Assembly (NCBI GenBank): GCA_964349465.1
Contig: CAYGGC010000006.1
Location: 1,218 to 65,217, forward strand
Direction: 5' to 3'
Length of the DNA: 64,000 bases
DNA from: an uncultured Gammaproteobacteria bacterium
GTDB lineage: Bacteria; Patescibacteriota; Patescibacteriia; SBBC01; CAIJZX01
Below are positions 2,155 through 55,495 of the stretch, piece by piece (position 1 is the stretch's first letter; the number at the start of each line of letters is the position of its first letter). The notes beneath the pieces were generated by a model. That model was not told where the DNA came from. It was given only the letters and a program-made list of their open reading frames with translations, and did not search any database. The position numbers and the translations under genes were made by a program.

Positions 2155-2366
2155 TGATGCTGCTGAGGAATAAAAAAGCGATGGACGTGCGGGCCGTTTT
2201 TGTCCCGCCGTAATGGCGGGACTACTTCCGGGTCCCGATCGACTTCGGGACACATGCATCGATGGCCAGACCTTACCAGAAAGCCCAATATTTGGCAAGT
2301 CCTGGTCGTATGGTCGCGACTACACCTGGTTGGGCGTGGCGGAGAAATAGGGTATACTGGCGCGGT

Positions 2367-9539: not shown

Positions 9540-10021
9540 AGAAAACCGCAATCTCATGATTGCGGTTGCGGTTTTGGTAGCTATTTAAAAAAGGCTACCA
9601 CCGCATCCCACAATGTGAGATGAAATGGTAGCCCCTCAACTTTCCCTCTACCCAGCGGAGCACTTGAGCCCCGACTAATTGTCAATAATGGAATTATAGT
9701 CGATCTGTCTTTAATGTCAATGAGTTTATACACACTTTCGCTTTCTTTCTGTAAAGCGAAATCCAAACTTTAAAAATGTGTTAAAACCTGATATCCTGTA
9801 GCAACAACTTAATAGATCAGATTTGCCTAAACTCTATGGAATTTTCGTAGGGCATGGCAAAAAAATCCACAAGTAGAAACGGTCTTTTTGACCGGGTACT
9901 ACTTGTGGTCTATCTCCGAAAGGGGGTAGGGCGATCGAAAGGTCGCCGCCCGGATTAAGAGACCGTTTTAAGTTGGTCTTCTGCCGGTAAAGAAAAGACT
10001 AAATTCCTAACAGAAGATATT

Positions 10022-51354: not shown

Positions 51355-53520
51355 ATGATCCGTCGCGCCGGTCTGACCTTGGCAATACTCAGTCTGGTTG
51401 GGTTGGCCGTCTGGGCCGGCGCGCAAACGCCGGCCCACCAAGCGATCGCGCAAGATCTGGTGATTGATCCAGCTGTAGAGGCGAAGTCGGATTTTCAACA
51501 GCTAGTGAATACGGCCTTGCCCGATCTTGAGAGCAATCTAGTTGGCATTCAATCGGTGAATGGATCGTCGACGACGCCATTCCCACATCCGTTTCTCTAC
51601 GGTGGCCCGAATAGTTCGGGGTGGCCGATGGTTGGGGATATTTCGGATCAGCGCCCGAGTCCAACCGCCCCCCTGAATGATGCTGTGATTGGCGCGTATG
51701 CCCGATTTCCTCTGGTCGTTCTCCCGACAACTCCGGTAGCAGATTCTCGCCCTGATATTATTCCCGCTTTGCGGGCAAAAAATCCGACGATCCAGGTTCA
51801 GGCATACGTTATGGGCCACACCATCTGGTGTCCGGAAGATGGGTCCGGAAACATCGCCTATGCCCCAGGCATATACTATCGCGATTATTATCTGGCGGTT
51901 ACCGGGGGCGATCCAAATTGTGCTTCGACGAGCAATGGTTTTTTATGGATGCAAGATGGTGTGAAGGCTGATCTGCCGCCGCACAACCTAGGCATGAACG
52001 TGAACTTAGCGCATCGCGTGCAGAATCCAGATACTTCATATACGTACGATGTGGCCGAACATCTCGCCGAAGCAATGTATGAATATGGTCGACCGGGCCG
52101 AAACTGGGACGGGATTTTTATTGATGTGTTTTGTCCTGGGATTATGTGGATTGAGTCGCCGGGACATCTCTATGATTACGCTCGCGCCGGATACGGTTCG
52201 GATAATACCAATCCAGCCAATCGCACGGCCTTTGATCTTGGGTGGCAGGCTGGACACCAACGCTTGGTCACGCGATTACGCGAATTGGCGGTAGCCGATG
52301 GGCATCCGGACTATCCGATCAGCGGCAACTGCGCGCAAGCGCCGGAACGCTTACATGAGCCAATGAATGGCTGGATGCGCGAAAACTATCCGTTCCAAAA
52401 CGGAGGAAACTTTTACAGTAATATGTTGACTTGGCCATGGGGTCAGTTGCATCAAGATCGAAATTTTCGTCAGCCGGCATATAACTATATTTTTACCGCA
52501 GCAAATTGGAGTGGCGGTCTGACCAATAATCCGGGCGACGAACAATACAATGCGTTAAACCAAAAAAAGATGCGGTTTGGTTTAGCGAGCGCATCGCTCA
52601 GTAATGGGTGGGCAGCCTTTCATCATGGCAGCGGCAATACGGCCCTGGGGTATTGGTTTAACTGGTGGTACGACGAGTACGGTGTGAATACACGGGTACC
52701 GCAATCAGATCCTGATTGGGGCAAGGCGATGAACGGCGCTTCCTATACGGGCTGGTTAGGCCTGGCAACGAGTCCGGCCTACCAACAACTCGGCAACGCC
52801 TACGCCTCAACCGCGGATCAATTAACCTCGAATCAAGGTTTCGAATCGGTTGGTGGTTCGCCGACCGCACTACCTAGCTGGACAGCGCCGTCATTCTTCT
52901 CGACGGTTGCGACCTATGAACGTACCACCGCCACGGCGGCTTCTGGAACCGCTTCCGCTCACGTCTCAGTTACGGCCATCGAAAATCCTTCCGTGTTTTG
53001 GTCGACCTATATGGCCAACGGAAACTTTTCCATCTCAGCGAATACAACGTACAGTGTCAGTTTTAAGGCTAAAGCGTCCGGACCATTGCCGGTGACTGTT
53101 GCGATTGGTAATGTCATTCAATCACTTCCCATCGATGACCAGTGGCGCCAGTACCAGGCGGTTTTGACGCCGACGAATACTCTTGCTAATGGCACGGTTG
53201 GCTTTAACTTTGGTTTAGCGACCGGAGACTATTGGATTGATGATGTGCGCGTTCAAGTCGGTTCAATGTCCGTTTGGCGTCGTGATTTTGAAAAGGGCCT
53301 TGTCCTGGTTAACCCGACGCCAGCGACCGTCACGATCGACCTTGAAGAGCCATATCGTAAAATACTAGGCACCGTCGATCCGGTTTTGAATGATGGCAGT
53401 GTCGTCACGAGCCTAACACTCGGTGGCACGAATACCGGTGCCGGAATTGGCGAGGCGGTTTTTCTGCTCAGCCTCGATTCGACCCCGCCCGGATCAGTCG
53501 CCGATCTTGTAGCCCCATAA
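51355..53520 (+). CDS. secreted hypothetical protein, possible glycoside-hydrolase-like
   Basis: Signal peptide (LTLAILSLVGLAVWAGA) and a Trp-rich sequence with a C-terminal beta-sandwich-like region. Confidence 0.5.
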   Translation: MIRRAGLTLAILSLVGLAVWAGAQTPAHQAIAQDLVIDPAVEAKSDFQQLVNTALPDLESNLVGIQSVNGSSTTPFPHPFLYGGPNSSGWPMVGDISDQRPSPTAPLNDAVIGAYARFPLVVLPTTPVADSRPDIIPALRAKNPTIQVQAYVMGHTIWCPEDGSGNIAYAPGIYYRDYYLAVTGGDPNCASTSNGFLWMQDGVKADLPPHNLGMNVNLAHRVQNPDTSYTYDVAEHLAEAMYEYGRPGRNWDGIFIDVFCPGIMWIESPGHLYDYARAGYGSDNTNPANRTAFDLGWQAGHQRLVTRLRELAVADGHPDYPISGNCAQAPERLHEPMNGWMRENYPFQNGGNFYSNMLTWPWGQLHQDRNFRQPAYNYIFTAANWSGGLTNNPGDEQYNALNQKKMRFGLASASLSNGWAAFHHGSGNTALGYWFNWWYDEYGVNTRVPQSDPDWGKAMNGASYTGWLGLATSPAYQQLGNAYASTADQLTSNQGFESVGGSPTALPSWTAPSFFSTVATYERTTATAASGTASAHVSVTAIENPSVFWSTYMANGNFSISANTTYSVSFKAKASGPLPVTVAIGNVIQSLPIDDQWRQYQAVLTPTNTLANGTVGFNFGLATGDYWIDDVRVQVGSMSVWRRDFEKGLVLVNPTPATVTIDLEEPYRKILGTVDPVLNDGSVVTSLTLGGTNTGAGIGEAVFLLSLDSTPPGSVADLVAP

Positions 53521-53663
53521 TTGAGAATCTTGACGTCGGTGCGCCAAAAGAGTAGGGTGGACGTTATCGTCCGCCCGTTCTTTTACGTTCACCCATTGGA
53601 GGAACCGCTGATTCTAATGCTGTTTTGATCAGGAAGATCACTACTACCAGGAGGATCGATCCA

Positions 53664-54044
53664 ATGTCCAACGATCAGAAGGTCGTGACCGACCCGAGTG
53701 TCTACACGGAGCTCTCCGCCCAGCAGCGCGTCATGACGGTCCTGCAGCTCGCCGGTCACACCCCCGAACAGATCGACAACCTGACCCGCCGCCACAGCCA
53801 CATCGGCGTGCTCGTCAACAACATCGCCACCTGTCGGGATGTCCGGCACAAGGTCGCGTGCGACGAAATGCGGACCAAGGCCGAAGCCGAGTTGATGGCC
53901 AACCAGCCGCCGTCGTCAACGCGTCGCTGGACGCCGCTCGAAGAGCTCGAGCTCATCATCACTGCGGCTGGCGATTCGAAGGTGCCCGTACAGCTTCGTC
54001 GGGCGTTCGACACCTCTCGCTCGCTCCAGGCCGACCCGGTCTGA
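53664..54044 (+). CDS. hypothetical protein (GC3-outlier gene)
   Basis: AGGAGG RBS upstream, extreme GC3 bias, and its own strong terminator. Confidence 0.5.
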   Translation: MSNDQKVVTDPSVYTELSAQQRVMTVLQLAGHTPEQIDNLTRRHSHIGVLVNNIATCRDVRHKVACDEMRTKAEAELMANQPPSSTRRWTPLEELELIITAAGDSKVPVQLRRAFDTSRSLQADPV

Positions 54045-54059
54045 ACCTCGTCCGTTGTG

Positions 54060-54097
54060 CCTCTCTCATGTCCCCGGGAGAGGTTTTTCTTTTTTGC
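54060..54097 (+). terminator. rho-independent terminator
   Basis: A CCUCUCUC/GGGAGAGG hairpin followed by TTTTTCTTTTTT. Confidence 0.7.
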
Positions 54098-54269
54098 CAA
54101 AGGGTGCTGAATCTGATAGGGTGGCTAGTGTTTACGGAGAGGTCGTCCCGTACAATCTCGCTGACGCTCGCTGTACGGGATAAACTCCGTGGCCGAGCTT
54201 GTTCCCGATTTGTCTAAAAATTCAAGCCCGCGCAGAATTTTTGCTACAAATCGCAATCCCGCCTGTGGC

Positions 54270-54357
54270 GGAGGGTTCGCATAGTGGCCTAGTGCATACG
54301 CTTGGAAAGCGTACATACCGCAAGGTATCGAGAGTTCGAATCTCTCACCCTCCGCCA
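54270..54357 (+). tRNA. tRNA-Ser(GGA)
   Basis: Manual fold: acceptor GGAGGGU/ACCCUCC, a 3-bp D-stem, anticodon loop UUGGAAA, a long variable arm, T-loop GAGAGUUCGAAUCUCUC, discriminator G, and an encoded CCA. Confidence 0.8.
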
Positions 54358-54360
54358 TCG

Positions 54361-54516
54361 GCGGGAGAAAGCGAGTATACCGCAAGGGTCGAGGCGATCA
54401 AAGCGAATGAACTGCTTCATTCGCGCGCCGAGACGGGCGATTCGATGTTTCAGAGGAACCGAATCGCCCAGGACCTCGGGAGTTCGAATCTCCTCCCCCT
54501 CCCTCTCTCTCCGCCA
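54361..54516 (+). other. atypical ~155-nt tRNA-like element (canonical T-arm and 3' CCA but no standard cloverleaf)
   Basis: It has GGGAGUUCGAAUCUCCU and a terminal ...CUCUCUCCGCCA. It contains UACCGCAAGG, shared with the variable arm of the adjacent tRNA-Ser, and several long internal hairpins. Confidence 0.3.
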
Positions 54517-54541
54517 TTATCTTCTCTCTGTTCGAAAAAGA

Positions 54542-55495
54542 ATGAAGTTAGCGTATCTTCTCCCGGCTTTTAATGAGTCCAAGACAATCACTGAGGTGAT
54601 TAGACGTTTGCCATTGCAACTTTCAGGCCTAGAAGTACTTGAGACCATTGTCGTTGATGACGGCTCAACCGATGGAACCGCTGAACTTGCGCGTCAGGCG
54701 GGTGCAATTGTCGTGAGCCATCAGTGGAACCGTGGCTTAGGCGCCGCCTTTCAAACCGGCATTGACCAGGCGTTACGGCGTGGGGCTGACCTTGTTGTAA
54801 CGATCGATGCTGATGGACAATTCTCGCCGGAAGATATTCCGAGTCTTGTCCAGCCGATTGTGGCTGGTCAGGCCGATATGGTGACGGCCTCACGATTTCT
54901 CGATCCATCAAAAGTTCCGACTATGCCGTGGGTGAAAAAATGGGGGAATCGTCGCGTCGCCGGGCTCGTTTCATTTCTTAGTGGTCAAAAAATTTTCGAT
55001 GCGGCTTGTGGTTTTCGGGTGTACAGCCGTGAAGCGTTGCTCAGTCTCAACTTATTCAGTCGTTTTACCTATACCCAAGAAACACTTCTTAATCTCATCT
55101 TTAAAAACTTTCGCGTCGTCGAAGTTCCAGTGATTATCCGTGGTGAACGTGAGCATGGTCAGTCCCGCGTCGCCAATAATCTTTGGAAATACGCTTTCAT
55201 GACCGCCAACACCATGTTCCGAACGGCCTTGGATTACCGCCCACTACGGGTATTTGGGTGGCTTGGCGCGGGAATATTCTTTGCTGGAATTGTTTGTGAA
55301 GTTTTTGTACTAGCGCATTTTGTACGAACAGGGATGGTTACTCCGTATAAGACGGTGGGGTTTACGGGTGGTCTTCTGAATCTGGTTGGTTTGGCAGTGG
55401 TGATGATTGGTCTTGTGGCCGATATGATAAACCGGGTGCGCATGACACAAGAACGTGTCTTAGCGATGACGAAGCGGCAGATGTATGATCGGTAA
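54542..55495 (+). CDS. GT2 polyprenol-phosphate glycosyltransferase (DPM1/GtrB-like)
   Basis: VVDDGSTDGT and DADGQ motifs, with a C-terminal transmembrane anchor. Confidence 0.85.
   Translation: MKLAYLLPAFNESKTITEVIRRLPLQLSGLEVLETIVVDDGSTDGTAELARQAGAIVVSHQWNRGLGAAFQTGIDQALRRGADLVVTIDADGQFSPEDIPSLVQPIVAGQADMVTASRFLDPSKVPTMPWVKKWGNRRVAGLVSFLSGQKIFDAACGFRVYSREALLSLNLFSRFTYTQETLLNLIFKNFRVVEVPVIIRGEREHGQSRVANNLWKYAFMTANTMFRTALDYRPLRVFGWLGAGIFFAGIVCEVFVLAHFVRTGMVTPYKTVGFTGGLLNLVGLAVVMIGLVADMINRVRMTQERVLAMTKRQMYDR

Follow-up and report, generated by a model that had tools for sequence, protein, structure and literature searches.

The question raised by this locus is the origin of a tRNA-like element (54367-54516, + strand) that follows a complete tRNA-Ser(GGA) gene in a 64,000-nt stretch of contig CAYGGC010000006.1. 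This whole stretch is referred to here as the window, and all coordinates are window positions unless another locus is named. The element was very probably the displaced and decayed 3' half of an older tRNA-Ser(GGA) gene, split between anticodon positions 34 and 35 by a cassette of about 165 nt that carries a complete tRNA-Ser(GGA) of its own. An initial annotation had proposed, among other options, a rearranged tRNA duplicate or an insertion-containing tRNA, and it was right in so far as the element derives from tRNA-Ser, is rearranged and bears an insertion. The self-contained gene of about 155 nt that it outlined did not, as the 5' half was found at 54136-54201, beyond the intact tRNA.

The tRNA origin of the element was apparent from three partial copies of the inner tRNA. 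The stretch GAAAGCGAGTATACCGCAAGG (54367-54387) was an 86% copy of 54305-54325, that is, of the 3' part of the anticodon loop, the 3' strand of the anticodon stem and the variable arm; this was the variable-arm repeat noticed initially. Further downstream, TCGGGAGTTCGAATCTC (54476-92) was a 94% copy of the T arm and TCCCTCTCTCTCCGCCAT (54500-17) an 83% copy of the 3' end. The copied part opened exactly at anticodon position 35 (GAAAGCG...). The textbook T arm, the 11 extra nucleotides, the G-CCA end and the long hairpins of the 5' part, two of them perfect, were likewise all found where they had been placed. The proposed start was not: the element had been begun four nucleotides after the CCA of the tRNA, with GGCGGGAGA taken for an acceptor strand. 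Its tRNA-derived part begins at 54367 (G35), positions 54358-54366 are the trailer strand of the inner tRNA, pairing with the leader at 54257-54269, and GGCGGGAGA consists of this trailer strand followed by anticodon-loop bases.

As the initial annotation had reported, the element could not be folded as a standard tRNA. ARAGORN called three tRNAs in the window, one of them the tRNA-Ser(GGA) at 54270-54357, and in its tRNA, transfer-messenger RNA (tmRNA) and intron modes it made no call on the element, either alone or within the window. No Rfam family was matched at E<=10 within 54360-54516, barring noise matches to vertebrate long non-coding RNA and internal ribosome entry site models; RF00005 (tRNA) was not matched in this segment at that threshold. 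When the whole window locus (at gathering threshold and at E<=10) and a related locus, L022 (at E<=1), were searched, only the intact tRNA and noise were returned. An unusual selenocysteine tRNA (tRNA-Sec), a tmRNA or another catalogued tRNA-like gene could be argued from the long extra arm, from the T arm with its CCA end and from the UCA triplet that one hairpin loop contains. Nevertheless, tRNA-Sec gave no Rfam match at E<=10, the sole UCA being in the 4-nt loop region of the hairpin at 54403-24, and no tmRNA was found by the ARAGORN tmRNA search or by Rfam in the window region. With no call in any of the three modes and no Rfam family save noise, such a gene is extremely improbable. The suggestion of an intron-containing tRNA fared no better: the group I intron model RF00028 was not matched at E<=10, the 5' exon ends in G34, the intervening sequence that is not tRNA amounts to only 68 + 9 nt, and there was no call in intron mode.

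The acceptor strands tied the element to the upstream half. The outer GGAGAGG and the TCTCTCC of the element formed six Watson-Crick pairs and one G-U pair; the inner tRNA uses GGAGGGT/ACCCTCC. Across the 14 testable loci of this layout, the outer 5' and 3' strands paired at 7/7 positions in 11, at 6/7 in two and at 5/7 in one, and they usually matched the inner strands less well than each other. Furthermore, when the outer halves of L019, L020, L026, L033 and L056 were spliced in silico, ARAGORN recognised a tRNA-Ser(GGA), so that the exons of these five loci reconstitute an intact tRNA. Those of the window, L049 and L052 did not and received no call, and L022 was called in a shifted register. 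Once again a tRNA-Ser(GGA) was called when the 3' half of the window, minus its inserts, was joined to a consensus 5' half of the GGAGAGG type. Judged by their sequence, the halves are those of a former single gene. The coordinates of the locus are collected in Table 1.

Table 1. Parts of the nested tRNA-Ser locus and its upstream flank, in window positions.
Feature	Position	Strand	Description
Terminator of upstream gene	54059-54084		Promoter-like site (54094..54122) comes just after
Weak sigma-70-like promoter	54094..54122	+	TTGCCA, 17 nt, TAGGGT; 8/12 positions matched, under the scan threshold; read from the sequence
Outer 5' half of split tRNA-Ser	54136..54201	+	Ends CTTG, anticodon position 34 (G34)
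Acceptor strand of outer 5' half	54136-42		GGAGAGG; the outer half opens with GGAGAGGTCG
Hairpin insert in outer 5' half	54146-80		35 nt; TCCCGTACA...TGTACGGGA
Rest of outer 5' half	TAAAC at 54181-54185; end at 54201		TAAAC, D-arm remnant GTGGCCGAG, end ...GTGGCCGAGCTTG
Cassette 5' intervening sequence	54202..54269	+	68 nt: TTCC, hairpin A, CAA, leader strand
Hairpin A	54206-54253		8-bp basal stem CGATTTGT/ACAAATCG, ~2-nt bulge on 3' side, variable upper stem; inverted repeats
Leader strand	54257-69		TCCCGCCTGTGGC; preceded by CAA
Inner complete tRNA-Ser(GGA)	54270..54357	+	CCA encoded; ARAGORN; Rfam RF00005, 53.2 bits
3' intervening sequence (trailer strand)	54358..54366	+	9 nt; TCGGCGGGA; pairs with leader strand
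Outer 3' half (the element)	54367..54516	+	G35 through CCA end
Start of element			GAAAGCGAG; anticodon positions 35-38 and stem strand
Variable arm of element	54376-89
T-stem strand remnant	54390-94		CGAGG
Hairpin-rich insert of element	up to ~54475		~86 nt
Two perfect hairpins in insert	54403-24; 54435-69	+	9 bp and 10 bp; lineage-specific filler
Second T arm of element	54478-94		GGGAG/TTCGAAT/CTCCT
11 extra nucleotides	54495-505		CCCCCTCCCTC; pyrimidines, between T arm and acceptor strand
Acceptor strand of element	54506-12		TCTCTCC
3' end of element	54513; 54514-16		G, then CCA

The unit ran from a weak promoter-like site through the outer 5' half, the intervening sequence, the complete inner tRNA and the trailer strand to the outer 3' half. 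In the cassette (54202-54366), the complete tRNA-Ser(GGA) was preceded by a bulged hairpin and a leader strand and followed by a trailer strand complementary to the leader. This inner tRNA matched the complete tRNA of L006 over 90 nt at 100% identity and is predicted to be a working gene. Leader and trailer formed a helix with 20-nt arms (54257-76 / 54347-66, 90% complementary) that lengthens the inner acceptor stem, and such a helix, of 13-28 bp, was present in 15 of 15 curated loci, the sequence varying and the pairing being kept. Divergent versions of the cassette also followed one conserved plan, namely T(T)CC, hairpin A, a linker (CGCAA or CGAGGA) and the leader strand. In the folds of 20 versions, hairpin A had a basal stem of 8-9 bp, about 2 nt bulging from the 3' side, and an upper stem that varied. 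In the basal stem of 11 versions 98.9% of the cells were paired, and three of the eight pairs had changed on both sides. None of 500 shuffles reached the values of hairpin A (paired cells, both-side changes, further pair types and covariation score), and pairing fell to 33-41% when the partner columns were slid. Hairpin A and the leader-trailer helix hold their structure through compensatory changes.

The same layout was then found in other genomes. A metagenome scan, asking for a tRNA-Ser variable arm and then a T loop 70-100 nt on, returned 25 loci, of which 18 contained a complete tRNA-Ser(GGA), a 10-25-nt spacer ending in (C)GGGA and a 3' half starting from GAAAG; the remaining seven were tandem tRNAs or other arrangements. 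In most of the metagenome loci with enough upstream sequence, a 5' half ending in CTTG was also present, and T(T)CCCG, a hairpin and a strand able to pair with the spacer came after it. Additionally, a genome scan with the 3' junction GGGAGAAAGCGNGTATACCG as the query (one genome per species) gave 15 matches, ten of which were nested tRNA-Ser loci and five chance matches within coding sequence. Nine of these ten loci came from metagenome-assembled genomes (MAGs) titled Parcubacteria, Saccharibacteria, Azambacteria or Patescibacteria, and one from a MAG titled Ignavibacterium. After the removal of duplicates, both scans together yielded about 20 distinct loci, almost all from the ultra-small bacteria of the Candidate Phyla Radiation (CPR)/Patescibacteria. 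Since they stem from different assemblers and projects, an assembly artefact is argued against; and because 3' halves of the same kind, with the same start nucleotide, were seen behind a tRNA-Ser(GGA) in about 20 further distinct loci, the arrangement is more than chance.

The junction pattern across these loci was ...CTTG|T(T)CCCG and CGGGA|GAAAG, with CTTG in most loci and exceptions on that side including L038 (GCTG), L026 (TTTG) and L052/L056 (ATTG). A nested cassette was accordingly defined on its 5' side by a 5' half ending in G34, T(T)CCCG, hairpin A, a leader strand and a complete tRNA-Ser(GGA), and on its 3' side by a trailer strand ending in CGGGA, a 3' half starting at G35 and cognate outer acceptor strands. 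The window, at 54136-54516, held every one of these parts. Its other tRNAs, tRNA-Leu and tRNA-Asn, were not nested. No phage-borne cassette was found among viral contigs, whose six matches were all ordinary tRNAs or chance coding-sequence matches.

Several loci contained two or three levels, one within the other. In L024 three levels (GGAGAGG > GGTGGGA > GGTGGGG) had their 3' strands downstream in mirrored order, L020/L044 had several successive 3' halves, and two tRNA-Ser sequence types nested both ways, in one order in L038 and in the reverse order in L049 and L056. As a sequence pattern, these multi-level nests show that insertion was repeated at the same bond. A tandem duplication of tRNA-Ser, in which the first copy lost its 3' half and the third its 5' half without any insertion, would account for every piece being tRNA-Ser-like, and tandem tRNA-Ser genes do occur in other metagenome loci (L036, L039 and L032). 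Nevertheless, two independent deletions at the same phosphodiester bond (34/35) would be needed in about 20 distinct loci, and the outer halves pair mutually and differ from the inner gene. Both nesting orders and the three-level mirrored nests also count against this course of events, which is highly unlikely.

The nests bear equally on a classical integration scar, which had been offered at the outset. In this case, a tyrosine-integrase element would have restored the 3' part of the tRNA-Ser and displaced the original downstream, and its island would later have been deleted almost completely. A direct repeat of the 3' portion of a tRNA downstream of the intact tRNA is the textbook signature of such an event. 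Moreover, only the 3' half was found in several loci (L021/L042, L045 and L054), pieces that start in the T loop and extend to the 3' end occurred in others (L019, L041 and L048), and the contig L059, described below, diverges inside the T arm of the inner tRNA, where Logan contigs also break. In the window, however, the direct repeat was accompanied by a cognate 5' half. A scar leaves unexplained this matched upstream half, with an acceptor strand cognate to that of the element, as well as the mirrored three-level nests and the recurrence in many lineages of the same trailer strand of about 10-25 nt, ending in CGGGA, as the "island"; nor does any integrase lie between the copies, the tRNA and the repeat being separated only by the 9-nt trailer strand. 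As an account of the whole locus a scar is quite unlikely. Within the element, the second T arm and the CCCCCTCC run could be such scars, and integration might account for the duplicated T-arm and acceptor fragments there. The polypyrimidine run CTCCTCCCCCTCCCTCTCTCTCC may be a slipped repeat together with the acceptor strand of a further tRNA-Ser copy (CCCCTCC). In general, integrase att duplicates resemble the present loci in having a partial loop-to-3'-end tRNA copy downstream of an intact tRNA, an invader that restores the gene and a recurrent target. They differ in that here a whole tRNA is carried, 5' and 3' halves are both left, the insertion has about 165 nt and no integrase, and the junction is at 34/35.

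Regarding the split gene itself, the outer 5' half of the window had lost the 5' strand of the anticodon stem and gained a 35-nt hairpin, and the outer 3' half had gained an insert of about 86 nt, a second T arm and 11 pyrimidines. Even with the inserts removed from both, the outer halves of the window gave no ARAGORN call and no cloverleaf. Broken anticodon or T stems were observed in many other outer genes. A BLAST search with the 91-nt segment 54388-54478, which holds the insert, against all fetched loci and the window matched its own genome only, and in L048, L022, L038 and L006, which share the same cassette or the same outer gene, the 3' half was clean or interrupted differently. As the pair of the window was not called as a tRNA when spliced, unlike the five cleaner pairs, it is best read as a dead gene, a pseudogene remnant. 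In the course of events proposed, the cassette would have inserted between anticodon positions 34 and 35 of the outer tRNA-Ser(GGA), the inner tRNA would have taken over its function, and the outer halves would have turned into pseudogene.

A functional RNA, alone or paired with the 5' half, would instead be a rejoined split or intron-bearing tRNA, a tRNA-like small RNA or a processing scaffold. In favour are the stable fold of the segment (-66.9 kcal/mol, better than shuffles, z = -3.7), a good T arm with an encoded G-CCA behind it, probable co-transcription with the tRNA and the pairing that the outer acceptor strands have kept, as well as conservation beyond expectation in parts of the outer 5' half and of the intervening sequence and the location of the inserts in loops. 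Against this stand the lost anticodon-stem strand and missing cloverleaf of the window gene, the broken stems of many other outer genes and an insert that is not conserved in L006, L048, L022 or L038. The initial annotation had itself named missing conservation as telling against its option of a tRNA-derived small RNA, and with the insert of about 86 nt unconserved in relatives a dedicated functional small RNA was not sustained. The junctions, moreover, form a symmetric internal loop instead of a bulge-helix-bulge, there is no group I core, and rejoining would yield merely a second tRNA-Ser(GGA). A function of this kind is unlikely.

The loci can also be compared with known interrupted tRNAs. 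Archaeal split, multi-intron and permuted tRNAs (Nanoarchaeum) also have interrupted anticodon, D or T loops and complementary sequences that join the halves, but their exons stay functional. The present loci are bacterial, hold a complete tRNA of the same anticodon inside, and in many cases have a decayed outer gene. In place of a bulge-helix-bulge, the sequence (TTG|TT..CCCG / CGGG..A|GAAA) reads as a single symmetric internal loop, closed by TCCCG/CGGGA, with the two junctions opposite one another. The group I intron of cyanobacterial tRNA-Leu(UAA) sits at 34/35. Group I introns of bacterial tRNAs share the interruption of the anticodon loop, and differ from the cassette in that here no Rfam group I match was obtained, the non-tRNA part has only 77 nt and the 5' exon ends in G, not U. 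Such introns have been reported in CPR tRNAs (PMC8172020).

The window tRNA-Leu and tRNA-Asn each had a clear promoter of their own. For the nested unit, a + strand sigma-70 promoter scan found none between the upstream terminator and the inner tRNA and none inside the element, the sole candidate being the weak site upstream of the outer 5' half. Because this is the only promoter-like site, the whole unit is probably one transcript, with the element co-transcribed as its trailer. Transcription would start upstream of the outer 5' half, the leader-trailer helix, akin to an rRNA processing stem, would act with RNase P/Z to release the inner tRNA, and the outer halves, element included, would be discarded as by-products. 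The GT2 gene downstream (ATG 54542) begins 25 nt past the CCA of the element. The interval (54517-54545) contained neither a terminator nor a promoter-like site on the + strand, and transcription of the tRNA-Ser unit may run on into the glycosyltransferase operon.

Several points weigh against a dead outer gene and a mobile cassette. The insertions in the outer halves favoured the D, anticodon and T loops and were not random, which is odd for purely neutral decay. Hairpins in the D-loop region of outer 5' halves were nearly always followed by TAAAC (window, L022, L024, L038, L047 and L006), in tRNA-Ser backbones of both sequence types; this may in part be the natural D-loop sequence of one type (GGTTTAAC), yet it also occurs in the other. 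From TAAAC through the intervening sequence, the window and L006 were 93% identical over 115 nt, whereas their GT2 proteins were only 75% identical. This unexpectedly high conservation, which reaches up to the inner tRNA, points to part of the "dead" outer half being under selection or having been exchanged recently. The retrieved 3' halves were biased towards intact ones, as the search patterns demanded intact variable-arm and T-loop sequence, and for this locus no allele with an empty site was retrieved. Finally, no transposase, integrase or nuclease was consistently linked to the cassettes, although no search aimed at transposases was made and the 64-kb window covers only a minor part of the genome; with no enzyme consistently linked, the mobility of the cassette is argued from the pattern alone.

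The closest relatives indicated how the locus has changed. Positions 54198-54387 were 93.7% identical over 191 nt to L048, from a Parcubacteria MAG, the rest of whose locus was dissimilar, and horizontal movement of the cassette is likely rather than proven. Partial synteny with the window upstream of the locus was observed in L022 and L038. L022 had the outer 5' half of the window, but a different, AT-rich type of cassette, and in L006 the outer 5' half and the cassette were both present. The outer 5' half shared by L006 and L022 consisted of GGAGAGGTCG, a hairpin and TAAAC..GGCC.AG..CTTG. The cassette tRNA of L006 was itself cut at 34/35 and followed by a GIY-YIG gene and a further complete tRNA. 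L022, L038 and L006 therefore share outer-half features or synteny with the window and differ in cassette type or in the number of levels. When L006 2000-3000 was compared with window 54136-54545, the whole tRNA-Ser nest was inverted relative to the GT2 gene, and the closest GT2 relative, L003 (79% identity), had no tRNA at the corresponding position. On account of this inversion and this absence, the locus rearranges quickly, and synteny through the downstream GT2 gene could not by itself show conservation.

A contig from another sample, L059, was 99.8% identical to window 52920-54355. Past the T arm of the inner tRNA (L059 1412-1929 vs window 54328-54360) it had a non-cognate acceptor CGCCTCC, a nested hairpin and unrelated sequence, and Logan contigs of the window's own sequence end or begin at 54328-54343 (ends of L001/L002, L058). 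Either this is a structural polymorphism at the population level, with a further T-arm insertion, or L059 is chimeric. The downstream gene of L059 was considered as Fic-like, and this was dropped as it had no Pfam match.

More tentatively, the cassette may be an undescribed protein-less selfish element of about 165 nt, composed of a bulged hairpin and a tRNA-Ser with a processing stem around it, that inserts at CTTG|GAA in anticodon loops of tRNA-Ser(GGA) genes, with hairpin-only derivatives at GTTC|GAA in T loops, nests and is mobilised in trans, a reading to which we give somewhat less than an even chance. Insertion would then be harmless, since a working copy of the destroyed gene comes along, and the new copy would again be a target, leading to Russian-doll nests. 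Mobilisation in trans would be carried out by a single-strand (HUH/IS91-like) transposase or a homing nuclease. Hairpin-only modules with the same ends (YCCSSC...GSSGGR) were found directly after GTTC in the T loops of L006 (two sites), L047 and L057, and also after CTTG in anticodon loops, in D loops and in the loop of hairpin A of L035. No target duplication was seen at the anticodon-loop junctions or the T-loop modules of the compared loci.

The targets of IS91-family elements are CTTG and GTTC, on whose 3' side they insert without duplicating the site, and the elements carry bulged subterminal palindromes (PMC13181058). The loci agreed with the IS91/HUH target, as the anticodon-loop insertions mostly came directly after CTTG and the T-loop ones after GTTC, with no target-site duplication. 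Further likenesses to the HUH group, including IS200/IS605 and the repetitive extragenic palindrome (REP) systems with their REP-associated tyrosine transposases (RAYT), are the bulged subterminal palindromes at the ends and the existence of small protein-less derivatives. The termini disagreed, as the cassettes end in ...CGGGA and not in CTCG/GTTC; the D-loop sites do not fit, and the palindromes are partly the tRNA's own ends.

Homing-endonuclease genes, such as those of the GIY-YIG family and SegB of phage T4, are found in tRNA regions. Here, genes encoding only a GIY-YIG catalytic domain (83-88 aa, Pfam PF01541) lay inside or beside fragmented tRNA genes of L029 (8940-9280), L006 (2433-2690, - strand), L052 (reverse strand, 611-895) and L019 (degenerate, downstream of the 3' half). 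The order in L029 was a 14-nt duplicate of the 5' end of tRNA-Asn, then the GIY-YIG gene, then a complete tRNA-Asn, as if the gene had entered the tRNA together with a replacement for its 5' part. Homing would explain the identical junctions and the repeated invasion of the intact inner copy. Unlike known homing systems, most nested loci had no GIY-YIG gene, those present have the catalytic domain only, and cleavage at the junction is no more than a candidate activity. GIY-YIG as the general driver was rejected, the genes being in or beside only three nested loci and the one tRNA-Asn case. The IS91-like targeting of CTTG/GTTC and the GIY-YIG genes are leads only.

Full-text literature searches revealed no account of a bacterial tRNA gene lying within the anticodon loop of a second one, only group I introns of CPR tRNAs and the target rules of IS91, and the architecture seems to represent a new form of self-complementing insertion into tRNA genes. 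Taken alone, the element is a dead gene fragment, its value being that of the visible edge of a tRNA-within-tRNA architecture across CPR/Patescibacteria. An essential single-copy tRNA gene could in this way be invaded repeatedly without loss of function, the invader bringing the replacement, and the nests would explain why tRNA finders report a lone tRNA-Ser amid tRNA-like debris in these genomes. The junction motif CTTG|T(T)CCCG ... CGGGA|GAAAG can be used to survey all tRNA species, and the architecture points to a connection, open to testing, between tRNA loops and insertion of the single-strand or homing type. In practical terms, the locus appears to be structurally polymorphic and breaks assemblies.

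Some further observations were made on related sequences. In two loci of non-CPR-looking context, L028 and L040, a tRNA-Ser(GGA) was followed by two or three tandem repeats, each with a terminator-like hairpin, the T-loop-like GGGTTCGAATCC and the acceptor 3' strand CTCTCCGCC; they look like serial att-type duplications. An intergenic part of the window (2203-2250) contained two adjacent GC-rich hairpins, GTCCCGCCGTAATGGCGGGAC and GTCCCGATCGACTTCGGGAC, with TCCCG...CGGGA ends like those of the hairpins of the tRNA-Ser halves. Eleven TCCCG...CGGGA hairpins were counted in the window on both strands, against a mean of 5.2 and a maximum of 14 in shuffles, a count that alone is not significant; such hairpins may be a genome-wide REP-like family. 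Lastly, the window contained a full-length LOOT RNA (Rfam RF03000), a structured RNA of unknown function, at 9824-9947 (+), with 87.7 bits against a gathering score of 46.4.

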